Below, piece by piece: positions 10,901-24,919 of a stretch of 64,000 nucleotides of DNA. The stretch comes from a virus. Each line of letters begins with the position of its first letter. Positions within the stretch are counted from its first letter, which is position 1. Position numbers and translations under genes: made by a program. The notes beneath the pieces are model-generated. The model saw only the letters and a list, made by a program, of their open reading frames with translations, was not told the origin of the DNA and ran no database searches. The stretch lies in the IMG/VR virus record IMGVR_UViG_3300037205_000062, positions 64,001 to 128,000 of that record; one strand, written 5' to 3'.

Positions 10901-12603
10901 AATATGCCGTAGTAGAAAATCAAGCAAGTCAAAAAATTCCACCACCAAATGCTGGTTATGGAGATGTATCAGCTTTAGCTCCAGTTGGACCAATTAAATA
11001 TATAGGAGCATTAAGAAGTTATACACCCTCAACAGTACGAGATACCAGAGGATTAAGAGAAGATTGGGGCAGATTTATAGATTATGGAACTTTAGTTCCA
11101 TTTTATAAAATTTTATCTCAAAACGAAGGGGATTGGTTATATGGATATAGTCATTTACCAATTTGTAATAATTATCAAATGAATAATGGACAAGCTGGTA
11201 TTCAAATTTCTCCAACTTTAAATGGAAATAAAATTTTACATTGGAGTTTAAGTCAAAGAGCAGTAGCGTCTTATCAACAAACTTGGGTTGGCGTACCTTG
11301 GGAACAACTTAATACTTTTGGAGCTTTATATCCTCCAATAACCCCATCTGATTATGAAGCTGGACAGGATTATGAATCGTTGGGTATTGGACAATGGCAA
11401 TGGTATAATAATTTTGGTGCTATTAAAAGATTTGGACATAATTCTACTTATCAAACTAATGATATTGTGTTAGTCGGTAATGGCTCTCCTAGTTCTAATG
11501 ATCAAGCTGGTTATAATACTCAAATAGCTTTAATTAAACAGAAATGGATTAAATCAACTGATTTAGCTGGATATAATTGTGGTTATACACCATTTGGTTT
11601 AGGACGTAATATGATTTTTTATATTGAAGCTTTTGATAGATTCTATATTTATTGTGATCCTCTAAAGAAAAAAAACGTTCAAGACCTTAATTATATGAAT
11701 CCTGGAATTAGATTAGGTAATTCATCTATTCAATATTTTTGGTTAGGCAAACCTAATAATACATATGTTGAACGTAGAGCAATGTATGGACCCTATGCTT
11801 ATCAATGGAGAGTGAGAAAACATAATAGAGATCGTAATGGTAATGGCATATCTCAAGGTTTTTATTCTATGGGATGGGAAGCTCCATATTCAGAAATGTA
11901 TGATGCTCCCGCTATTTATGGACTTTATTCTAAAGTAATGGATTCTCCACAATCTATGGCTAATATAAATAATATTACTCAATTAAGAAATACCGCTGGA
12001 TATTTAACGGAAATAGGATTAAGAGGAAATTGGTTTGGAACAACTAATGATGAAGGTACTTCTAATACTTATGGAAGTACTTGGCTAGGAGATTGTAGTA
12101 ATGGTGGAGCTGCTTGTAATTATTATAGTGCTTTTTCTGAATTAGCTGGCCAACCAGATTTTGAAAATTACGCCTGTACTCCATTAATGATTCAAAATAA
12201 ACAATGTTTTGACCCATGTTTAAGCATAAGATATGCCCAAGGGTTTTTTCCTGGAGGAAAGTCTCAAAATATGTTTAATTTGTATGGTTCTAATAAGAAT
12301 ATTAGATTAGTTCCAACAGCTAATAATGCTGGTAATTCTCCTATTTTATATGATGAACAATCACAGATTGATAAATCTACTTTTTTTAGAAGTCCAGTTA
12401 ATACACCACATGCTCAACTTATGAGAATATTGGGAAATACTATTGTAGGAATAAGTCCTTGCAAGGACGGAGGAAGTGATCATTGTAATTATATTACTCC
12501 CACTGTTCACTTAGGAACGAGTAGTTTTTTACAAGGACAAACAACATCATTTTTAGCATTAGTTAATCTAATGGAGTCAATTGTTGGAAACTATAGCGGA
12601 TAA
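7906..12603 (+). CDS. Large virion structural/tail-associated protein with an Ig-like domain
   Basis: 1565 aa, N/G/S/Y-rich; internal PIFIQQP...G..PTL...YKWY...D.YFYFCMVS...S..LVV Ig-like signature. Confidence 0.65.
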   Translation: MAKGMNLTGTPNNIIINNILSGYYSENVIVGIKPHLFDFSSPTYLINNFQAPYDAKLNIFTGNQNSLQAVGRKIPNPTTPSFDSNRSGVLYYSDNATIYGVCHGFSGDSLTYYQGYNFYNAHYAPGYFSPPFGENISILKYDTNDDESVLGEGVCSDLNITEYNEIYGINSFVSSEANITSNDLQAGNSMLLSTPKAACPEDAVSDFFDEWALYPIQGTVTELGANNLFNGNPIPTSLDNYEIRLLSRYSTFVSGGGSTGITYLNYNSSGQPIASYFPSSQQNKLNNTLCEAQIIETSTDFGIGTNGLQLLLVPDAGNSAVGSQASFIGVADPWNMWQFNFEENSDSFPFSDGFSVEGGGVHQLLASEGTALFNSTLAVEDNYWQNRQCPSTVDYLPWTFGASIYACPSYHFDIPYYAAINKFGFYGMRFMNNCAGLSLTYPYSGVPNAMEVQQSFTPQPIGVGKNEPEGIDAFGSQGNFTQYDNLLSIAKAESSYSNMYALNKGFFIWSNNQYINTTSQFNQLNQKYPGFIYLYSGLISPFQNIFSGGITGYSKFEPDFINNNAGNIISSSWIADTLLTNNVYNTFIQNLPNILSGQDYNLWNEIENAYAYYVTNGQGSVNESFYENLITGRDARLLTRYFNNLVTANPIDLFPLNQVIFSYDKAQDYLESTGWNRLTTSFGLNSPIPQINRRYFVGAYGNGGDISGVIQAMNQLSLVNGSYFYPGFFNDVNINKDMPALKYESVNSGIILDEKLRSFSPSGWLALGYGGIGQLDKNFSCFTPIFIQQPLQQVYCKIGQAPTLRSLAVDYHTIPEDKISYRYTELVYWLQKLKIVDNSFNNLYPLQYKWYRVPKGNYSTMVQQGNFALATPSSSTGNWACLEGDGPDCTVINPLLSLPTGTLGSTDNYTFVKGITYGTDDSYFYFCMVSGRFGIRMSEASSLVVENWARFDVSFKNAINANASLSISFMINDGLGNNQQINFPTSSSYPPYNGYQRDEYAVVENQASQKIPPPNAGYGDVSALAPVGPIKYIGALRSYTPSTVRDTRGLREDWGRFIDYGTLVPFYKILSQNEGDWLYGYSHLPICNNYQMNNGQAGIQISPTLNGNKILHWSLSQRAVASYQQTWVGVPWEQLNTFGALYPPITPSDYEAGQDYESLGIGQWQWYNNFGAIKRFGHNSTYQTNDIVLVGNGSPSSNDQAGYNTQIALIKQKWIKSTDLAGYNCGYTPFGLGRNMIFYIEAFDRFYIYCDPLKKKNVQDLNYMNPGIRLGNSSIQYFWLGKPNNTYVERRAMYGPYAYQWRVRKHNRDRNGNGISQGFYSMGWEAPYSEMYDAPAIYGLYSKVMDSPQSMANINNITQLRNTAGYLTEIGLRGNWFGTTNDEGTSNTYGSTWLGDCSNGGAACNYYSAFSELAGQPDFENYACTPLMIQNKQCFDPCLSIRYAQGFFPGGKSQNMFNLYGSNKNIRLVPTANNAGNSPILYDEQSQIDKSTFFRSPVNTPHAQLMRILGNTIVGISPCKDGGSDHCNYITPTVHLGTSSFLQGQTTSFLALVNLMESIVGNYSG

Positions 12604-12623
12604 ACAATATAATAAATAACAAT

Positions 12624-15600
12624 ATGATAACGTCTGTTAGTAATTTGTTTGGATTTTCTACCACCGTAGCTAATATAAGAGCTACAGTATTAGGTCAATC
12701 ACCCATAAGAGAAGGATTATGTAATTCATTTGTACAAGCATTTGATTTTTCTAGTTCTTATGGTGCTACTATTTATCAACAAGTAAAGAATAATTCTAAT
12801 ATTCAAAATACTCCAGGATTTAATATTGGAAGTACTTATGATTCTATAGAACAACAATTTTATAATATATTAAATACTTCTTTTCCAAATGAATCAATAC
12901 AAAACAAAAAGAATTTAGCATTAGCGGCCAATGCTTTAGTATTTGGATATTATGTTTACAATAATATAAATTTATCTGATTTCGTTAATCTTATGGGACA
13001 GTTAATGTATTATGTATCTACTGTTATTAATAATAGTCCTATCTTCGGAGTAAATAATAGTTCAAATGTAATTACTCCATTTACATCTTCAGTTATTCAA
13101 ACTTTATTAAATAGTAATTATACACAAGTTATAGAAAATATGTCAGGGGCACCTAGAAATTCCCCCATTGAAGTAGTTAATTATAATTGGTACGAAACTC
13201 AAAATATTTTTTCTAATCCCAATTTACAATTAATGAAAGATATAGAAAATCAATATTACTATATTTCTGGTCAATTAATATATCAAGGAGATGAGTCTAA
13301 TTTACCAAATTGTATTGAAATACCTTTAACAATTAATACATTAACAGGTACAATTAATTCAACATATTTTCTTAATCAACCCTGTGTAGATCAAACACAA
13401 TATATTGGGCCAGTTACAGGAGTATCGTTTTATAGAGAATTTAATGATGGTCCTTTTTCATCTGGTGATTTTACGGCTGATGTTCAACAACAATATATAG
13501 AATTTGATCAAAGTGTTTTATCTGGTTATCAATATCAAAGTAATGCTAAAATTTTATATTCATTTTTAACTGGTAGTGACAGTGGTTATCTTCCAGTAGC
13601 ATTTCCATATGTTTATACTGATGCTAATGGTATTTATAATTTAGATCAGGAATATATTAATATACCAGAGACTTATGAATGTTCTCAGGTATATAGTTCC
13701 ATGCATATAGGTAGTAATTGGCAGAGAATTAGATGTCAACGAGATATACATGGTAATTGTATTAATTGCGAAGAAACTAATTTAACTGGATTCAAATTCG
13801 CGACTTTAGAACTTGACTATCAAAATTGGTATAGAAAATATTCTTATGTTAAAACAAATCCACCGACATCTATTGATAGACTGTTGGCAAGGGCTTTGAA
13901 TATTTTGCCTTATTCATATATTTCGGAGCCAAATACGGATAATAACTTAATAACAGTAAATTCATCTATTAATCAACCATATTTAGGTTATCCTCAATTA
14001 ACTGGACAAAATGCCTTACCTACTATAGCATTTTTTCAAACTTTTAGTAGTCCTACCTTTAATGTAGAACCATCTTTAGCTATATATCCAGCTATAGGAA
14101 CTTCTTATAACGGTACTAATACTGGTTCAGATAGAACTTATGAAATTTCATCTAATTTGATTTTTTCTGGTATTTCATCAATTAATCCGCCAATAGGTTC
14201 TACTGGAGTCAAAGTATTACCATTTGGTGTAGTTATTACATCTTCTGGTAATACAGATGATATATCTAAACAATTTTTTGGTATGGGTGATAATTTAGGT
14301 AATCAATTTACCATTCTTGAAACATTAAATTATAATGCTGGATATGCTTATACTGGAATCGTATTAAGTGGCAGTGGAATATTAGAAAATATTATTTTAT
14401 ATAACAATAATACAGATACAGCTTATCCAATTTTAGGAAGTCAATATCAATATATTGATTTAATTAGTGGATATTCTAATGGTAATGGCAATCAATATGT
14501 TATTACGCAAATGTATGCTCAAGATAATTCTGGAAATTTAATATCATACTATTATCTTGATAATAGAAATTTACCATTAGATTTACAAGTATCAGAAAAT
14601 GAATTAGTTTCTTTTTGTCCATTGCCTGACGTATTTGAAAATAATCTTCAATATAATAGAATATCTGGTACTCAAATAGTTGAGAATTATTTACCACGTT
14701 TTAGTTCTGGGGCATACTCTTTAGAAACAGAAACATTTTTATATCCAAACGCGTCTTTAGCAGATTCATTATATAAAAGTAAAATAAATGGTTTTCCATT
14801 AAGAATTAAATTTGTATTAAATATTAGAGAAGAAACTGTTAGAGAATTATATTCAAAATTTTTTATTACATCTAATGGCTCAATATCTGATATACCATAT
14901 TATGTTAATGTTATTAGACCAAATTCAAATGGGCAAATAGATAACAATATTTTACCTACAATGAGAACAATTTTTGTTCCCGATAATTCTTATTATTCAT
15001 TTCAATATAATTTTAACAATTTTGGAATGGATACCAATAATGATTCGTTTCAATATACTGCCGATCTTTCTATGGTAGACAATAACTGGAGTCCATATAT
15101 TAGTAGATATTTTTATCAAAATATAGGAAATCCAACTTTATTTAAGCAATTTAATCAAACAAATTTTTCAGCTACAAATTATTTTACTCCTTCTGGAAGA
15201 AATTCAATTATATATAACAATGAAAATAATCCTTTTGATCAAGGGGTAAGATTAACTGGTAATGGAGGTAAACAAAGTGTTTGGTTTACTGGGACTGGTA
15301 ATAATAATTCATTTAATTTTTATCAAGAAATACCAATGGGTAATGGACTTTTTCATTATTATAAACCTCTTCAAATTACTGGATATTTATTATATACTCC
15401 ACCATATTTTGATCTTTCTTCTGGACAGGGATATATAAATAACGCTATCCAAGAAGCGTTTTCATTAATGGTTAATGAAAGTACAAATGCTGGACCGATG
15501 AACTGTAACGTTTCTAATGATGGAGGTTGCGCAGTAGTTGAGGGAGCATATTATCAAAATATTCATGGAATAACTGGATTTATTCCAGAAGGAGTTGACC

Positions 15601-17463: not shown

Positions 17464-18669
17464 TTATTCATTTCCAGAATCTTTAAGCTGAGCTAAAGAT
17501 ACATATATCTTATTTTGTTGTATAGATATACTTTTGGCAAATACGGTATTATCTTCTTTTTTTTGTCCCTTTATAATAACAATATCATTAGCTTTAGGAA
17601 GAGTACCATTAATCTCTTTACATTCTTGTAAACTGTCATTAAATATCATCACGTTCATAGTACCTGTTTCGTCAGAAATTGAATACTTAGCATATTGACT
17701 TCCATTAGGATTTTTTTCGCTCTTATTTTTTGATAATCCAAGTTTTGGATTATCATCAACTATACCAACAAAAATACAATTAGTTTTATCTAATTCTCCA
17801 CTTAAATCATTTACTGAAATTAAAGAAGGAACATCATTAATAAATATATCAATAAGTTTAGTTTTCGTAGAATATCCTAATAAGGTTTTCTCATACCACC
17901 AATTAGCAAAATCTTGACAAATTTTATTTTTTTCATAGATTTCTTTGTATTTTTCCATCTTTTTCTTTATAGTTTCAAAACGCGATTCTTTAATTAAAAA
18001 TTTACTTTTTTCATCTTTTAATTCTTTAACCATAGCATTAACTAAAATAGGTAACTTATATTCATATTTTTCAGCATATGACATGGCTAATCTTTTTTCT
18101 TTTTCAGTTAATACGTTCCATAATTGGGCTTCATAAACTAAAAATACTCTATTTTTACCAAATTGTTCTAATGTGCCCGCTTGAATTAATGCGGAAACTA
18201 CACCTATAGTTAGTCCAGCTTGTTTAGCTGATTCAAATAATTCAAATTTATTAGCATGTTTTCTTTTAAAATTATTAAGTTTTTCAATAGTTTTTTCACT
18301 AATACCTTTAATAGATGATAAACCGAATCTAATATTTTTTCCTTCAATAGTGAAATCCATTTCAGAAAGAGTTAAACTTGGTGGTAATAATTCAATATTA
18401 AAATACTGCATTTCTTTATGAATTTTAGATATTTCGCCAATTGGGTCTGGTTCGTGTCTTGTCATCCTCAATAATGAAAGATAAAATTCTTTAGGATGGT
18501 TAAATTTTAAAAATACAGAAATAGCACTTAACGCACTATAAGAAAAACTATGGCTATTAGATGTAACCATACCCTCCGCATAAAAGTTGTGGTCTGGATG
18601 ATTAACTTCTAAATCTATAGTAGGTTTTATACCTAAAGATTTAATTGATTTTATTTTTAAAAGTTGCAT
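17464..18669 (-). CDS. dnaE: DNA polymerase III alpha C-terminal part with N-terminal split intein C-half (IntC, 38 aa)
   Basis: MQLLKIKSIKSLGIKPTIDLEV...HNFYAEGMVTSN|SHSFSYS..., then HhH (IRFGLSSIKGI) and OB fold (ISDETG). Confidence 0.92.
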   Translation of the reverse strand: MQLLKIKSIKSLGIKPTIDLEVNHPDHNFYAEGMVTSNSHSFSYSALSAISVFLKFNHPKEFYLSLLRMTRHEPDPIGEISKIHKEMQYFNIELLPPSLTLSEMDFTIEGKNIRFGLSSIKGISEKTIEKLNNFKRKHANKFELFESAKQAGLTIGVVSALIQAGTLEQFGKNRVFLVYEAQLWNVLTEKEKRLAMSYAEKYEYKLPILVNAMVKELKDEKSKFLIKESRFETIKKKMEKYKEIYEKNKICQDFANWWYEKTLLGYSTKTKLIDIFINDVPSLISVNDLSGELDKTNCIFVGIVDDNPKLGLSKNKSEKNPNGSQYAKYSISDETGTMNVMIFNDSLQECKEINGTLPKANDIVIIKGQKKEDNTVFAKSISIQQNKIYVSLAQLKDSGNE

Positions 18670-18670
18670 A

Positions 18671-19246
18671 TTATAATTTAATAGAATTTTCTACTTGATT
18701 TCCAAATACATCCCATCCATTTGTTTGTTGACGTGCGAAAAGCTCCACCCTTGGAATATTACCACAAAGTTCAACAATTCTATTTCTTACTTCATCTGGT
18801 TTTTTACTATGTTGTTCTCTTGGGCTTTGAATTAAAGCTCTAACTTTACGATTTTTGACAAGTTTGGTAGCGTTTTTACCTTTAGTAGCCAACAAACATA
18901 ACTCTACTCCAGATTTAAGAGTATAAGTTCCCATAAAACATACTGGCTGATTTTTCTTGTTTAGCTTTTGCCAAACGAATCCAACGGTTTTGTAATCAAA
19001 TCCCCATTCTTTGATAACCTCGCAACACCTAGATAAATGGTAATCAGTTGTCTAGATAAATAGGATACAATCATCGTCAGCAATATTCTTAACTGGCAAC
19101 GCTTTAATATCTTCACTAGACATTACGGGATATGGCACTTTACGCATCAAACCTAGTCCAAAATGATTCTTTTCTGGAATAACAGTCATATCGTTATAAT
19201 ATGACCAAGGTGGGTCTGCATAAATTATATTATATTTTTTACTCAT
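18671..19246 (-). pseudogene. MT-A70-family adenine methyltransferase interrupted by one in-frame TAG (19052-19054)
   Basis: IIYADPPW...CILFI*TTDYHL...WGFDYKTVGFVWQK...ELCLLATKG...HSKKP...ELFAR is one continuous frame; the TAG sits at the conserved Trp. Confidence 0.85.
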
Positions 19247-19267
19247 ATTAAATTCAATTCCTATAGA

Positions 19268-19296
19268 ATAATATCACATCATTAGTTTACTGTCAA
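19268..19296 (-). promoter_or_regulatory. Sigma70-type promoter for methylase and dnaE C-half
   Basis: TTGACA-17-TATTAT. Confidence 0.7.
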
Positions 19297-21626
19297 GAGA
19301 TTTTGTATGTTTGATTTTTACAAATTCTAGCAATAGTTGAGATACTAACATTATAAAATTTAGCTATATTTGTAAAACTATCTCCACTTTTACTTCTTTG
19401 TCTAATATCAATAATTTCATTATCTTGAAATTTGGAAGCGTAATGTTCTGAACCATAATAAACTTTTAGGTTCAGTGATGGATGACTTAATCCAGTTTTT
19501 ACTGCATGTATATTATTTTGTTTAATAGTTACCCATTCTAAATTATCTATTCTATTGTCTGTTTTAATTCCATTTTTATGATTAATACAAGGTAAATTTT
19601 GTGGATTTGGTAAAAATGCTTGAGCGACTAATCTATGAATAAAATATTTTTTAATATTTTGTTTGTGTTTTATTTCTACCCTTAAATATCCATCTTTATC
19701 TAAATACGGAGTTAAAGTCTTACCCCCGTAAAATCTATTATTACCACATTTTCTAGGTAAACTAATAATAGTTCCTAGATTAGATATTTTGTATAATCCC
19801 TCAAAACCTAGAACGCCTCTGAATATTTCCTGTTTTTCATCGGTGACAATTTCTAAATTATTATCTAAAATTTCTTGAATAGATTTCATTTCCACATTAT
19901 TAGTAAGAAATTTGTGTTTAAGTGAACAAATAATTTCTCTATCATCTGATAAAATAATCTGAAATAACTCTTGTTCTCCGTATATTTTGTCTTTAACTTC
20001 TACTTGTATATTACATTGGTTAATAGCATCAAATGAAGTAATATTATCTCCAATATTGATTAAAGACAGTGGTTTATATCCATGTCGAGTAGTAATAATA
20101 GTGTCTGGATGCAAACATTTATTAAAAGAATAGTCCGCGCTGGCTATAAGAGCATCCCAATAAAATTTTGCAGATTTTGGTATTCCTAATTTTTGCCCTT
20201 GATTATAAATAATATCCTTATATTTATTCATATCATCAATTTTCTTTTTACCGCAAGCACGACGAATTTGTTCGGCATCATCCAGCGTTAATTCAAAAAC
20301 TTCTTTGGCGATTTGCATCAGTGTCTCTTGATACAAAATAATACCACCAGTTTCAGCCATAATTTTCTTTAATTTATCGCTTTCTATATCAAAATTAGGC
20401 ACTTCTCCACTATTAGTATAATGTGCATAATCGTCAATAAATGCCATACTTCCAGGGCGAGCTAAGGCCAGAATAGCACTTAGTTCATTAAAATTATGTG
20501 GTTTGACTTTTTGAGTAGTTTTGAAACCGAGATCAGCTTCAATTTGGAATAATCCATGAGGATATTTAAGATTTTGTAAATGTTCATACGTTGATTTATC
20601 AGCTACATCAATATCTTCGACATTGATTTTTAACATCTTACACACATCATCTACTACAGATACTCCTCTAAGTCCTAAAATATCTACTTTAAGAGAAAAT
20701 AAAGACACTTGGTTCATGTCATATGAAGAAACCAAGTCTTTATCAGACGATAATTCTACTGGACAAATATCTTCTAGTTTGTCGTAAGAAATCATAATAC
20801 CAGAAGGATGTACTCCCTTATTTTTAATAAGGTCTTTTAACTTCATGGCTATATCATAAGTTTCTTTATTCGCATTACACCAATCTCTAAATTCACTAAC
20901 ACTCGCATAAGCTTTGTCTAGGTCTTCAATTTGTCCGTGTATTTTTGGAATCATGCTCGTAACATGAGTCATTTCTTCTTCTGGTTTTGCGCCAAAGATT
21001 TTGCCGACTTCTTTAATAACTAACTTAGAAGATAAAGTATTAAATGTAAGAATTTTAGCGGTCTTACCTTGGTATTTGTCGTTGATGTATTTTAGAACTT
21101 CTTGACGGCGATAGTAATCCACGTCGCAGTCGATGTCGGGGCAGAGTGAACCATCAAGATAATCTACTCCATTAATGGTTGTTTTTCTTGCTCTAATTTT
21201 AGATATAAATCTCTCAAAATATAATCCATATTTTATAGGATTGATTTTTGTTATGCCTATAAAAAATACAACTAAACTACCAGCGGCAGACCCTCTCCCA
21301 AGTCCAGTTGGTATATTGTTTTTACTACAAAAATTAATAATATCCCAAACCAAGAGAAGATAATCAGTAAATCCTAATTCTTTAATAATTTCCAATTCAT
21401 ATTTTACTCTCTCTGAATATTCTTTATATTCATTTGAATTCTTTTGTAAATTTAATTTCTTAAAACCAATTAAACATAAATGTCTTAAAAAATCAAAATT
21501 AGACATGTCTTTTTCAATAGAGAATTGTTTTTTATATTCCTCGGTGACAATAAATTCTGGTAGTCTAACCCCAAGAATAGGTATTTTAATTGACTCAAAT
21601 TGCTCAATAAATTCAGTTGGTTTCAT
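19293..21626 (-). CDS. dnaE: DNA polymerase III alpha catalytic part + split intein N-half + in-frame NUMOD4-HNH endonuclease
   Basis: GRGSAAGSLV, PDIDCD, HPSG, KVDILGL; YSFNK|CLHPDT (intein start 20117); later EGLYKISNLG, IHRLVAQAF...INHKNGIKTDNRIDNLEW and a terminal HTH. Confidence 0.92.
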   Translation of the reverse strand: MKPTEFIEQFESIKIPILGVRLPEFIVTEEYKKQFSIEKDMSNFDFLRHLCLIGFKKLNLQKNSNEYKEYSERVKYELEIIKELGFTDYLLLVWDIINFCSKNNIPTGLGRGSAAGSLVVFFIGITKINPIKYGLYFERFISKIRARKTTINGVDYLDGSLCPDIDCDVDYYRRQEVLKYINDKYQGKTAKILTFNTLSSKLVIKEVGKIFGAKPEEEMTHVTSMIPKIHGQIEDLDKAYASVSEFRDWCNANKETYDIAMKLKDLIKNKGVHPSGIMISYDKLEDICPVELSSDKDLVSSYDMNQVSLFSLKVDILGLRGVSVVDDVCKMLKINVEDIDVADKSTYEHLQNLKYPHGLFQIEADLGFKTTQKVKPHNFNELSAILALARPGSMAFIDDYAHYTNSGEVPNFDIESDKLKKIMAETGGIILYQETLMQIAKEVFELTLDDAEQIRRACGKKKIDDMNKYKDIIYNQGQKLGIPKSAKFYWDALIASADYSFNKCLHPDTIITTRHGYKPLSLINIGDNITSFDAINQCNIQVEVKDKIYGEQELFQIILSDDREIICSLKHKFLTNNVEMKSIQEILDNNLEIVTDEKQEIFRGVLGFEGLYKISNLGTIISLPRKCGNNRFYGGKTLTPYLDKDGYLRVEIKHKQNIKKYFIHRLVAQAFLPNPQNLPCINHKNGIKTDNRIDNLEWVTIKQNNIHAVKTGLSHPSLNLKVYYGSEHYASKFQDNEIIDIRQRSKSGDSFTNIAKFYNVSISTIARICKNQTYKIS

Positions 21627-22434
21627 TTGCTTTTAATAATCTAAAAATTTCTTCAAATTTACCTTTTTTTCTTTTAAGGAAAATCGAAGCGTCATTATAA
21701 AGATAATAGTATATCTTTTGTATTTTGTCAATCTTATTCCCTCCAATACTTAAATAACATAATTTTTTATTATCCTGCTCCAAAGATAACTTTAAAAATG
21801 AAATTGATGATTCTATATTTTCCCCAAGTATGTTTTGGATAGATTGGTTGAACGGTATGGTGCTAATAAATGAAGTTCTCCATTTTATATAACCATATTT
21901 CTTATCTATACTATAATTAATAGAACCATCTCCATCAAAAAATCCCCTAATAAAATGTGGCAATAAATTTTTTGGAACCTGTTCTAAAGTTGGAAATTTT
22001 AATGTTAGACTTTTCTTATGCCCACATCCCTGCTTTAATAAATCATTATATAACTGTTTGTTATTGATACAAAATCTCATATAACCTCTATCATTTACGA
22101 ATGCATGGGCAGAACCTATTGCTTTTTTAAAATCTTTTAAAATATGAAAATCTTTTTTATGTAAAGTTAATTTCATAGAATTATGAGTAATTGACCCATC
22201 TGCATAAAGAAATCCAAGAAAATAAGCCTTTGCCTCGTTATCTATTTTAGAAAAAAAACTATAGTCACAATCTTTAACTATGTGAGATTTTGATAAATCT
22301 CTAATTGATATATTATTACGTCGAAACATAGTATGAATCCATGCTGAATTCCATCCATATTTTTTCCCTAATTGTTGTAAAGATAGACCTTTATTATAAT
22401 CTTCTTCTAAAATTTTAAGTTCTTGTTGTGTCAT
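21613..22434 (-). CDS. Free-standing LAGLIDADG homing endonuclease
   Basis: AYFLGFLYADGSI and HFIRGFFDGDGSI motifs. Confidence 0.9.
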   Translation of the reverse strand: MTQQELKILEEDYNKGLSLQQLGKKYGWNSAWIHTMFRRNNISIRDLSKSHIVKDCDYSFFSKIDNEAKAYFLGFLYADGSITHNSMKLTLHKKDFHILKDFKKAIGSAHAFVNDRGYMRFCINNKQLYNDLLKQGCGHKKSLTLKFPTLEQVPKNLLPHFIRGFFDGDGSINYSIDKKYGYIKWRTSFISTIPFNQSIQNILGENIESSISFLKLSLEQDNKKLCYLSIGGNKIDKIQKIYYYLYNDASIFLKRKKGKFEEIFRLLKANETN

Positions 22435-22469: not shown

Positions 22470-22703
22470 TTATTTGTTATTTCTTACTTCTACAAAATTA
22501 CTTGTTGTAAAATCATTCAATATATGATTATTTTTATCGAAAAGAGTCCATCTATTTCCATTAACTTGATAGTGGTCGCATTGATAAGTTATTAATTGTC
22601 CCCAATGGTGTTGCCAAACCGTATAATGGTTTTCATTCCCACATCCTAATATAACAAAAGATATAATTAAAAATATACAAATATATAAAATTTTATTTTT
22701 CAT
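22470..22703 (-). CDS. Small putative lipoprotein
   Basis: Basic N-terminus, hydrophobic helix, ILGC lipobox-like motif. Confidence 0.5.
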   Translation of the reverse strand: MKNKILYICIFLIISFVILGCGNENHYTVWQHHWGQLITYQCDHYQVNGNRWTLFDKNNHILNDFTTSNFVEVRNNK

Positions 22704-23347
22704 AGTTCAATCTGAAACTTGAGTTTATCCCATACCGCCTTATTTATCTCAAGGTCGTAAGTTGCATTATGTAATTTGCTTTCGTCTAAATCAATTCCAA
22801 ATTCTTTAGCTAAAGTTGATAAACTAGTTTTTATTCCTTTGACAACAGCATTACTATAACGATATTGATAATCAATAAAACTTCCTTGTTTTGAATTATA
22901 GGGAACTCCCATTTTAATACCTTGGGCAATAGCTTTAGTATCAATGATTTTTGGTAATATCCATTTCCAAGGAACTCCCATAAATTCAGCATAACCTTTT
23001 AATAAATATATATCAAATCTTAAAATATTATGCCCCATAATATAATCGCAATTTTTTAGATCATTCCAGAATATAGAAAAGGCTTCTTTGGGTTGAATAG
23101 CGATTCTTTTATGTTCTTCTTGATTAAAATGAGTAATTCGCGCAGCTTCAAATCCTATTTTTAAATTAGGTGCAACTTTACTCCAATCAATTCTAATATC
23201 TTTTTCACTTGTATTATTACCTTGAAAATTAAGAATACTTACTTGCCAAGGTCTATTAAATCTAAATGAAAGATTCAAATTAAATGTCTCCACGTCGCAC
23301 AAGCAGAACTTAACTTCTTTGTTATATCTAAGTAAATTACCATTCAT
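22700..23347 (-). CDS. DEDDh 3'-5' exonuclease (DnaQ/epsilon-like)
   Basis: CDVET, GHNILRFD, LHNATYD. Confidence 0.88.
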   Translation of the reverse strand: MNGNLLRYNKEVKFCLCDVETFNLNLSFRFNRPWQVSILNFQGNNTSEKDIRIDWSKVAPNLKIGFEAARITHFNQEEHKRIAIQPKEAFSIFWNDLKNCDYIMGHNILRFDIYLLKGYAEFMGVPWKWILPKIIDTKAIAQGIKMGVPYNSKQGSFIDYQYRYSNAVVKGIKTSLSTLAKEFGIDLDESKLHNATYDLEINKAVWDKLKFQIEL

Positions 23348-23674: not shown

Positions 23675-24445
23675 TTATTTTATTAATTTTTCAAAATTAA
23701 AAGTATCACTACATAGATGCGATAATTCAGGACGTTCACATGTAGATTTTTTTGCCGAACCTCTTGCGTGAATACATCGAAAAGTAAGATAAGCGGGAAA
23801 ATCTTCGGGCTTATTATAATAGACGCTTTGGGTATCAAGAGTTTCAAAATTATTTTTGGCGCAATAATCTTCTACTTTTTCTAATAAAATATCATCAAAA
23901 GGTATATCATTAGTTTCCTTAAAAAATATAGGTTTAGTAAATGTAAAATCTGGAATATGTTTATGACTTTCTAAATTATTAAGATGTAAAAAAGAATCAT
24001 AAAATGGCACAGTTAACATAAGATTTGCTGTCCATAAACGTTTTAAATTTTTGAAATCTATAATTGGATAATAATAAAAACCATCTTGTGCCGCAAATGT
24101 CCAAATTTTAATTAAATCTTTATATCCTTTTGTATTCTTGACGAAAATAATATATTTAGCTTGTTTTGCGTCACTATCATCGTTCTTAATTAAGACATCG
24201 TCTGTAATTGAGATACGAAGACCGAAAATTAATTTAATATTATTATTTGCGGCATTTTTACTAGCTTCAAGCAAAGAACTTACATTATCTTCGACAAGAG
24301 TAAGGGTTTTTTGATTATGTTTTTGTAAAATATAGAAAATAGAGTTTTCATTAGGTTTCTTTTCTTTATTAAAGGGGGTATCTAAATTAAAAATTGATTT
24401 TCCAATTGAATAATGCGATTTCCACAAAGCAAGGACTTTATCCAT
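23675..24445 (-). CDS. Stand-alone PHP domain of DNA polymerase III alpha
   Basis: KSHYSIGKS...KLIFGLRI...KNTKGYKDLIKI...GFYYYPIIDF. Confidence 0.85.
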   Translation of the reverse strand: MDKVLALWKSHYSIGKSIFNLDTPFNKEKKPNENSIFYILQKHNQKTLTLVEDNVSSLLEASKNAANNNIKLIFGLRISITDDVLIKNDDSDAKQAKYIIFVKNTKGYKDLIKIWTFAAQDGFYYYPIIDFKNLKRLWTANLMLTVPFYDSFLHLNNLESHKHIPDFTFTKPIFFKETNDIPFDDILLEKVEDYCAKNNFETLDTQSVYYNKPEDFPAYLTFRCIHARGSAKKSTCERPELSHLCSDTFNFEKLIK

Positions 24446-24466
24446 ATAAGAATAATACTATAAGTT

Positions 24467-24919
24467 TTACTTTTTGTCAATCATTAATTCTGGATTTTCA
24501 AATATATTACCAATAATTTCACAAGTAGCAAACCCACGAGATACACAATAATCTTCTTCCCAAGTAAAATTTTGTAAAGCTCTTTTATTACCATTTGTGT
24601 GTTCTGGATGCGGTTCTATAGTGGCTATACCATCAAAACTAATCATAACCTCTGAAATATGCGGTTCTTTAGTTTCCCATGTATGATGAAGTTTAACTAT
24701 ATCTCCATCATAAATTTCTTTCCCATTCTTATCTTTAAGACCCGTAAACTGCTGGACAATATAGTTGTATTGATTAATTGGCGCGATATATTGCCCACTT
24801 AAATGAATAATTTCTCCATTTGTGCCGACTGCCATACCCATATATCCATATCTTTCTGGCCCAAAGAATCGGTTAGAATCTTTCATCCATATTCTAAATT
24901 TTATTTCTCTATTTTTCAT
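24467..24919 (-). CDS. YopX family protein (second paralog)
   Basis: MKNREIKFRIW...QFTGLKDKNGKEIYDGDIV...IIGNIFENPEL; start reassigned to ATG 24919. Confidence 0.88.
   Translation of the reverse strand: MKNREIKFRIWMKDSNRFFGPERYGYMGMAVGTNGEIIHLSGQYIAPINQYNYIVQQFTGLKDKNGKEIYDGDIVKLHHTWETKEPHISEVMISFDGIATIEPHPEHTNGNKRALQNFTWEEDYCVSRGFATCEIIGNIFENPELMIDKK

Follow-up and report, generated by a model that had tools for sequence, protein, structure and literature searches.

How can a phage obtain a working DNA polymerase from a gene that is broken into several pieces, one of which runs in frame into a nuclease? The question arises from the dnaE locus found in bases 64001-128000 of the 162.9-kb IMG/VR virus record IMGVR_UViG_3300037205_000062, a stretch of 64,000 nucleotides (nt) with 28-30% G+C that we refer to as the window. 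The polymerase pieces lie there on three open reading frames (ORFs), namely one for the PHP domain, one for the middle part of DnaE followed by the N-terminal part of an intein (IntN) and an HNH nuclease module, and one for the intein's C-terminal portion (IntC) followed by the C-terminal part of DnaE, and the last two of these would have to be joined by the split intein. On the evidence reported here, we consider it quite probable that this large uncultured phage has a "fractured" dnaE gene, whose halves a naturally split class 1 intein keeps together, and that a nuclease has been captured by its IntN.

The dnaE halves are adjacent and co-oriented, with the split intein at the break, and the two intein parts reside on separate ORFs in different frames, each joined to one extein and separated by a gap of 623 nt (coordinates are collected in Table 1). 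In the 777-amino-acid (aa) ORF, residues 46-479 match the Pfam families DNA_pol3_alpha (4.5e-64) and DNA_pol3_finger (1.5e-32), and the intein begins directly after ..FNK with Cys504 (block A), followed by S568 and H571, which form the S-x-x-H motif of block B. C504, S568 and H571 are invariant in two alignments of relatives (A1 and A2) whose exteins are just 36-45% identical. A sequence search matched IntN to the Npu DnaE, Ssp DnaE and gp41-1 inteins with E-values from 1.7e-5 to 4e-4, and in an AlphaFold model of IntN plus HNH (predicted local distance difference test, pLDDT, 87.8), the IntN part was aligned by Foldseek to 4qfq_A, which is IntN from the native split intein of Npu DnaE, with a TMt of 0.77 and a root-mean-square deviation of 2.3 Å. 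IntC on its own gave a weak match to the C-termini of mini-inteins. Its block F (..DLEVNHPDHNFY..) has the Asp and the His, and its block G ends in ..TSN and is followed by Ser+1; both blocks are nearly identical to those of contiguous inteins found at the same site, IntC closely resembles the C-terminal stretch of the ones in P0004, P0006, L077 and gp103 of the cultured Rhodococcus phage Grayson, and the ending ..SN↓SH (the arrow marks the splice point) recurs in every IntC examined, including those of L021, L053, L054, L075, L155 and L163. The net charge is -7 for IntN and +3 for the first 20 aa of IntC, and this acidic/basic polarity has been described for cyanobacterial and fractured-gene split inteins (PMC2677866). 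The break is located in the canonical endonuclease-insertion region between blocks B and F, as IntN ends about 27 aa past block B, and its end coincides with ..EIVTD, where the unfused IntN of P0002 stops and the frame in the window carries on. Taken as a whole, these features support a naturally split class 1 (HINT) intein with Cys1 and Ser+1, which is predicted to splice.

If the exteins are joined as predicted, they read FNKSHS at the junction and give a protein of 866 aa, to be compared with 855-887 aa for intein-less relatives, and about forty related phage loci (L002-L047, intein-less) read ..FNKSHS.. without interruption. The original prediction for this locus, made from the letters of the sequence, had proposed a split Cys1/Ser+1 intein whose splicing would restore the FNKSH motif, and both proposals agree with our results: Cys1, block B, the terminal Asn and the +1 Ser are all present and invariant, and the predicted junction equals that of the intein-less alleles, with a fitting length. 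The two ORFs exist as it had them, and all of its coordinates were correct. It had also placed the insertion apart from the cyanobacterial DnaE site, and indeed the site in the window is K↓S with Ser+1, four residues downstream from what we take to be the cyanobacterial one (Y↓CFNK, with Cys+1). As for its description of a "new" trans-splicing Ser+1 pair, the split Ser+1 pair stood and the novelty did not, given that the same site is occupied by contiguous and many split forms and that fractured dnaE genes were published in 2009.

Past IntN, the 777-aa frame proceeds, with no stop or start between IntN and HNH, through NUMOD4 (residues 600-651; 41.4 bits, E 1.8e-10) and HNH_3 (residues 661-705; 37.4 bits, E 1.9e-9), for which the Pfam cut-offs are 23.4 and 24.8, and into a weak tail resembling a helix-turn-helix (HTH) domain. 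The HNH part resembles I-HmuI (1u3e) both by phmmer (E 1.6e-10) and by Foldseek (7.9e-8), and 27 sequences share, without variation, the catalytic NHK..N..N..H residues, which in the 279-aa query are N184, H185, N193, N206 and H209. Nuclease activity and homing are predicted for the fusion. Free-standing homologues start with the same ..W/F-x-x-I/V-x-G-Y/F-E-G-x-Y motif a few residues from their first codon, and end in ..WKHI followed by a stop. Because this motif and the ..WKHI stop are matched in the window, nothing of the gene is missing from the fused module between its opening residues and its native stop, and the captured nuclease gene would have lost only its start signals. We also considered translation of a separate HNH protein from an internal start and rejected it: from where IntN ends up to the NUMOD4 motif the sequence has no ATG, GTG or TTG, and the closest ATG in frame is one within IntN. 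It had been suggested as well that the arrangement couples homing to polymerase maturation, which would be true of any endonuclease-bearing intein, and which in the present case we infer.

The fusion is not limited to the window. An exhaustive protein search was run against 1.84 billion representatives, with the best 150 matches considered, and among the matches listed seven other clusters at 50% identity (P0008, P0009, P0014, P0016, P0033, P0034 and P0011) contain the FNK site, IntN and the whole HNH in a single alignment, in proteins that are 757-777 aa long or partial. The related locus L075 encodes a DnaE-IntN-HNH ORF of 782 aa, whose HNH stop is overlapped by 16 nt by a 398-aa IntC-DnaE-C ORF, and it shares the synteny with the PHP and exonuclease genes and has no methylase gene. 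In L104, it is the terminase large subunit that is broken, at its P-loop, with the same IntN-NUMOD4-HNH-HTH fusion and an overlapping IntC ORF; a search for further terminase IntN-HNH fusions returned only the cluster of L104 itself. The fused class hence comprises dnaE in at least 9 lineages and one terminase, and the predicted IntN-HNH fusion is a recurrent family rather than a one-off. Other matches among the representatives, beginning within the stretch that corresponds to IntN, proved on inspection to be tandem HNH proteins and not intein fusions. The protein-level hits that cover at least 80% of the 777-aa query (Wollypog, C3PO and Lactobacillus P1) have an HNH gene that merely adjoins dnaE, with no fusion. 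A DNA-level search of GenBank phages returned similarity to the HNH gene only and no close relative. It is possible, if still tentative, that IntN-nuclease fusions are a stable and selected class of split inteins, in which a nuclease gene that lacks start signals of its own rides on the host gene and is freed upon splicing, and that they fill a half-way step, leading from fractured genes to inteins with an endonuclease, that was predicted and had not been observed.

How does such a locus compare with the other occupants of the site? A bifunctional intein is one continuous polypeptide, whereas here the HNH shares its frame with IntN alone, IntC being encoded by a second ORF; a fractured gene has a free-standing homing-endonuclease gene between its halves, whereas here the sole free-standing gene in the gap is one of the MT-A70 methyltransferase type. 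The locus in the window is thus intermediate between the two. Another 51 IntC-bearing DnaE C-halves exist, and split forms at this very site are also found in L021, L053, L054, L155, L163 and L173. Between the halves, L021 and L053 have a Vsr/NUMOD3 gene on the same strand (315-330 aa), L054 an HNH gene on the opposite strand, L173 (6804-9780) a free-standing LAGLIDADG gene, and L155 nothing at all. The IntN of L173 begins with Ser instead of Cys (..FNF↓S..). Contiguous mini-inteins occupy the site in Grayson gp103 (MH153812.1), P0004, P0006 and L077, and the one in Grayson gp103 (L169:710-3538), of about 150 aa (..YSFNK↓C ... THN↓SH..), is without annotation in its GenBank record. A comparison with related phages for contiguous or intein-less alleles, as advised in the original prediction, therefore yields both kinds, the former in the four cases just named and the latter in L002-L047. 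The closest relative of the window, L002 (70% identity), has an empty FNK↓SH site. L002 does carry a LAGLIDADG intein of full length elsewhere in dnaE (L002:7001-10807), at a site (..EQIRR↓C...HN↓C.GKKK) that is empty in the window, and L077 has inteins at both dnaE sites. P0007, a metagenomic protein of 552 aa with an extein near that of the window, loses the IntN pattern past about 50 residues after ..FNK↓C and goes on with unrelated sequence, and may be a degraded or differently invaded allele.

With regard to the gene between the halves, the MT-A70 reading frame covers profile positions 1-172 (98 bits), contains the DPPW motif and ends 1 nt before the IntC ATG. It is interrupted by one in-frame TAG that replaces a Trp conserved in three homologues, and by its reading frame it is now a nonsense pseudogene. 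No suppressor tRNA was found among the 13 tRNA genes of the genome, TAG is the stop of 10 of the 133 long ORFs, and no other pair of ORFs is joined by TAG; recoding of TAG was ruled out on these three grounds. The original prediction of an MT-A70 gene with a promoter of its own was accurate as to the gene and the promoter match; it mentioned neither the TAG nor the separate ORF of the PHP domain. Since it has a nonsense codon and since the closest full homologue of the layout, L075, is without it, the putative methylase gene is a passenger and not part of the mechanism. In L053, two intact MT-A70 genes in tandem (L053:10939-12014) lie directly downstream of the C-half of the split dnaE. They are 46% and 73% identical to that of the window, the more similar one being its closest homologue. 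This suggests that the methylase gene moves within the dnaE neighbourhood of these phages. The exact promoter pattern TTGACA-17-TATTAT has 4 matches in the window against 0.08 expected, 3 of which lie directly upstream of the three dnaE pieces, and the inserted promoter probably serves the C-half. In the match before the PHP ORF, the -10 hexamer ends 6 nt before the ATG (24445-24480), and the mRNA of that ORF may be leaderless.

We envision the following sequence of events. Three promoters of one type would drive the PHP piece, the DnaE middle part with IntN and HNH, and the C-terminal part of DnaE with IntC, the last behind the MT-A70 gene, and promoter use in this manner, like the direction of evolution, is presumed. 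Once translated, IntN, which is acidic, would pair with the basic beginning of IntC to form one HINT domain; a thioester at Cys504 would be attacked by Ser+1, Asn38 of IntC would cyclise, and an 866-aa polymerase with an intact FNKSH motif would be released. The excised product would be a two-chain endonuclease, with IntN-HNH (274 aa) held to IntC (38 aa), and, like enzymes of the I-HmuI type, it would most likely nick or cut the intein-less dnaE of co-infecting relatives, where repair would copy the whole cassette. The fusion itself may have arisen from a free-standing NUMOD4-HNH-HTH gene whose 5' end was captured in frame by IntN and whose own stop was kept. Such a capture would stand half-way through step IIIa of the model put forward by Dassa et al. 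2009, and the MT-A70 gene with its promoter would have entered later, between the stop of HNH and the start of IntC.

Evidence on mobility comes from two sources. L021 and L036 are 95% identical over flanks of 8.5 kb and 6 kb and differ by a precise insertion of 1.3 kb, consisting of IntN, an endonuclease gene and IntC, at FNK↓SH. In trees, the fused state needs 2 changes on the IntN tree, a number as low being reached in 0 of 500 shuffles, and a single clade is not rejected by the approximately unbiased test (p-AU 0.084); on the extein tree it needs at least 4 changes, and the window groups with the unfused P0003, apart from the other fused members. The trees are short. Their pattern suggests that either the element was transferred or the nuclease was lost repeatedly, and is only suggestive of horizontal transfer.

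A captured nuclease on a working split intein has to be weighed against a number of observations that do not favour it. The penultimate intein residue is Ser, not His, throughout the family of the window, an ending that presumably resembles the ..ASN of Npu DnaE and is no proof of activity. No Shine-Dalgarno sequence precedes the IntC ATG, and the neighbouring genes are also without one, none of the seven checked being clear; if translation ends at the TAG, the IntC gene would lose its translational coupling. The IntN tree has no strongly supported branches, two rows of the extein tree are polluted by a second intein, and genomic context among the other fused dnaE members covers L075 only. A splicing-dead relic, in which IntN and IntC hold the polymerase pieces together non-covalently, as in NrdA of phage Aeh1, would account for the missing penultimate His, and non-covalent assembly of halves split by a mobile element is documented (PMC3045599). 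We regard such a relic as quite improbable, however, because Cys1, the S-x-x-H of block B, the Asp and His of block F, the terminal Asn and Ser+1 are all in place and do not vary among relatives that are as distant as stated above, because the IntN model superposes on the active Npu DnaE IntN, and because the contiguous homologues at the same site must splice to give a one-piece polymerase. The reverse history, decay rather than capture of a free-standing gene, deserves more credit, even if we find it unlikely; the intein would then have been contiguous, with the HNH inside it, until a frameshift or a stop past the nuclease domain broke it. In-frame HNH inteins do exist, and a preprint (10.1101/2025.01.02.630785) states that inteins can become split through a stop that arises while their endonuclease domain decays; the HNH stop of L075 and that of L104 are each overlapped by an IntC start in another frame, as a single indel would yield. 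Decay alone would not readily explain why the N-terminal motif of free-standing homologues is present in full in the fused module, together with their native ..WKHI stop, nor why no contiguous IntN-HNH-IntC protein, and no match that ran on into an IntC and a C-extein, appeared among the best 150 of the 1.84 billion representatives; in addition, four other kinds of free-standing endonuclease gene occur at this site, and in L174 an HNH gene of this type sits out of frame within a different intein, all of which argues for capture.

The adjacency of the HNH and MT-A70 genes, the strong promoter match of the latter and the two MT-A70 paralogues that adjoin dnaE in L053 could also be read as a nuclease-methylase pair, that is, a restriction-modification-like or anti-defence module in which the methylase shields the phage DNA from the nuclease or from host restriction. 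This appears very improbable to us, as the TAG stands at a conserved Trp in a genome without a suppressor tRNA, the IntN-HNH/IntC layout occurs with no methylase in both L075 and L104, and the HNH is of the I-HmuI-like homing type. Lastly, the record is derived from a metagenome, and either the IntN-HNH fusion or the TAG might be an artefact of assembly or sequencing. We consider an artefact hardly tenable: the 777-, 401-, 64- and 87-aa products of the window are each found on 4-5 contigs from NCBI, JGI, Logan and ENA, with both MT-A70 fragments on 5 contigs, and the fusion is kept, with the same end points, in distant relatives. An assembly frameshift as the source of the fusion is therefore excluded for practical purposes, and the claim that HNH reads in frame with IntN is borne out by a single frame with no stop.

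Table 1. Features of the dnaE locus and its surroundings (positions refer to the window)
Feature	Position	Strand	Basis or remark
PHP-domain ORF of DnaE (256 aa), first polymerase piece, without intein	23675..24445	-	Pfam PHP, E 5e-9
DnaQ-like exonuclease	22700..23347	-	Replication module
Free-standing LAGLIDADG endonuclease gene	21613..22434	-	Pfam LAGLIDADG_1 and LAGLIDADG_3; just upstream of the middle dnaE piece
N-half ORF, 777 aa (DnaE, IntN and HNH)	19293..21626	-	Program-made ORF
N-extein, DnaE palm/thumb/fingers, residues 1-503, ending ..ADYSFNK	20118..21626	-	Pfam
IntN, 95 aa, Cys1 = residue 504 at 20117-20115	19833..20117	-	End at about 19833
NUMOD4-HNH-HTH module in frame with IntN; native stop TGA at 19295-19293	19293..19832	-	Pfam
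MT-A70 (DPPW) adenine methyltransferase gene, one TAG at 19054-19052	18671..19246	-	Pfam and profile
C-half ORF, 401 aa	17464..18669	-	IntC and DnaE C-part
IntC, 38 aa, ending ..TSN, then SHS	18556..18669	-	Blocks F and G
C-extein: Ser+1 (SHSFSY..), DnaE HhH and OB C-terminal part, 363 aa and stop	17464..18555	-	Pfam HHH_6 1e-16 and OB fold
TTGACA-17-TATTAT sigma-70-like promoter match, before PHP ORF	24452..24480	-	Exact match
TTGACA-17-TATTAT promoter match, before 777-aa ORF	21703..21731	-	Exact match
TTGACA-17-TATTAT promoter match, before MT-A70 and IntC-dnaE; -35 hexamer contains the TGA of the 777-aa ORF	19268..19296	-	Exact match

The locus belongs to a replication module on the minus strand, in which the PHP ORF is followed by a 107-aa ORF, the DnaQ-like exonuclease gene, a 77-aa ORF, the LAGLIDADG gene, the 777-aa ORF, the MT-A70 gene and the 401-aa ORF. 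The PHP piece is four genes away from the rest of dnaE, and a separate PHP ORF is also present in L002, L075 and the cultured phages Grayson (gp102/gp103) and Wollypog (gp56/gp59). The LAGLIDADG gene between the exonuclease gene and dnaE is absent in the relative L002. Elsewhere in the same phage, outside the window, the P-loop of the terminase large subunit is interrupted by a LAGLIDADG intein of the contiguous kind (..GRGMGK↓C ... SHN↓T..; G000:C1, about 11360-14400; L164:415-3438), so that the phage genome has two predicted inteins of different types. At 61628-61681 of the window, a short HNH_3 match (24 bits, in an open frame of 66 aa) lies between tRNA genes and is probably the remnant of another HNH homing-endonuclease gene. 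In another terminase, L174:4911-6920 (also L175), a contiguous P-loop intein has a complete 185-aa NUMOD4-HNH-HTH gene (5209-5766) nested in another frame.

These findings have implications beyond the phage in question. Naturally split inteins are rare and are the basis of protein-ligation tools, and the pair described here, with Cys1, Ser+1 and parts of 95 and 38 aa, has dozens of natural homologues; the contiguous, split, nuclease-free and nuclease-fused forms at one and the same site provide a ready comparative series. The conserved IntN-HNH fusion, beside free-standing, antisense and out-of-frame versions, offers direct material for the capture model of endonuclease gain. The MT-A70 insert indicates that the gap of a split intein can hold cargo, and, if our reading is true, the cassette would carry the passenger and its promoter along in homing. 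The locus also adds one more phage case of replication genes kept functional under a heavy load of selfish elements.

In spite of their similarities, the window and the systems already known differ in several respects. Fractured genes, including three dnaE loci, were described by Dassa et al. 2009 (PMC2677866), and the locus in the window shares with them the adjacent and ordered halves on one strand, the break at the canonical position, a homing-endonuclease coding region at the break, the complementary charges and a source in environmental phages, whereas its endonuclease is an HNH fused to IntN and its free-standing gap gene is a methyltransferase pseudogene with a promoter of its own. L021 and L053, on the other hand, conform in full to the type as published. 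The occurrence of split dnaE inteins among phage metagenomes is not new, and neither are the insertion site nor the combination of Cys1 with Ser+1. HNH-fractured genes were predicted in that study and not observed (PMC2677866), and, as far as our literature searches show, what is new is an HNH partner that is fused in frame to IntN only and kept as a family, as well as the presence of a non-nuclease passenger gene in the cassette.

The cyanobacterial DnaE split inteins of Ssp and Npu (1zd7, 4kl5, 4qfq) interrupt the same protein in its fingers/FNKSH region and are the closest solved relatives of the IntN described here; they also have an IntN of about 100 aa, an IntC of about 36-38 aa, no penultimate His and the same polarity. 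The intein of the window differs from them in its site four residues downstream (K↓S versus Y↓C), in Ser instead of Cys at +1, in halves that are adjacent rather than at distant loci, and in having retained a nuclease. With the inteins of Grayson gp103, P0004, P0006 and L077 it shares an identical insertion point (..FNK↓C ... N↓SH..) and homologous blocks A, B, F and G, although those are single polypeptides without an endonuclease, and Grayson's ends in HN↓S where the family of the window has SN↓S. The nuclease module has the domain order, the fold and the catalytic His and Asn of I-HmuI (PDB 1u3e; NUMOD4-HNH, phage SPO1), a nicking enzyme that is a separate protein encoded in a group I intron, while in the window the module makes up the C-terminal portion of a precursor composed of polymerase and intein. 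Contiguous actinobacteriophage inteins of non-canonical architecture, with free-standing endonuclease genes that invade the insertion region and lie in frame, out of frame or antisense, were reported by Gosselin, Arsenault and Gogarten (bioRxiv 10.1101/2025.01.02.630785), and L174, an out-of-frame example with the window's type of HNH gene, fits their idea; unlike the inteins of that report, the one in the window is in two parts, and its nuclease gene is joined in frame at the 5' side alone. According to Dassa et al. (PMC2677866), mini-inteins are invaded by free-standing endonuclease genes, which break the host gene apart, and in-frame uptake of the invader may follow as step IIIa of their model. 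Since free-standing, antisense, out-of-frame and fused nucleases are all found at this or at similar sites, the pattern as a whole fits this capture model.

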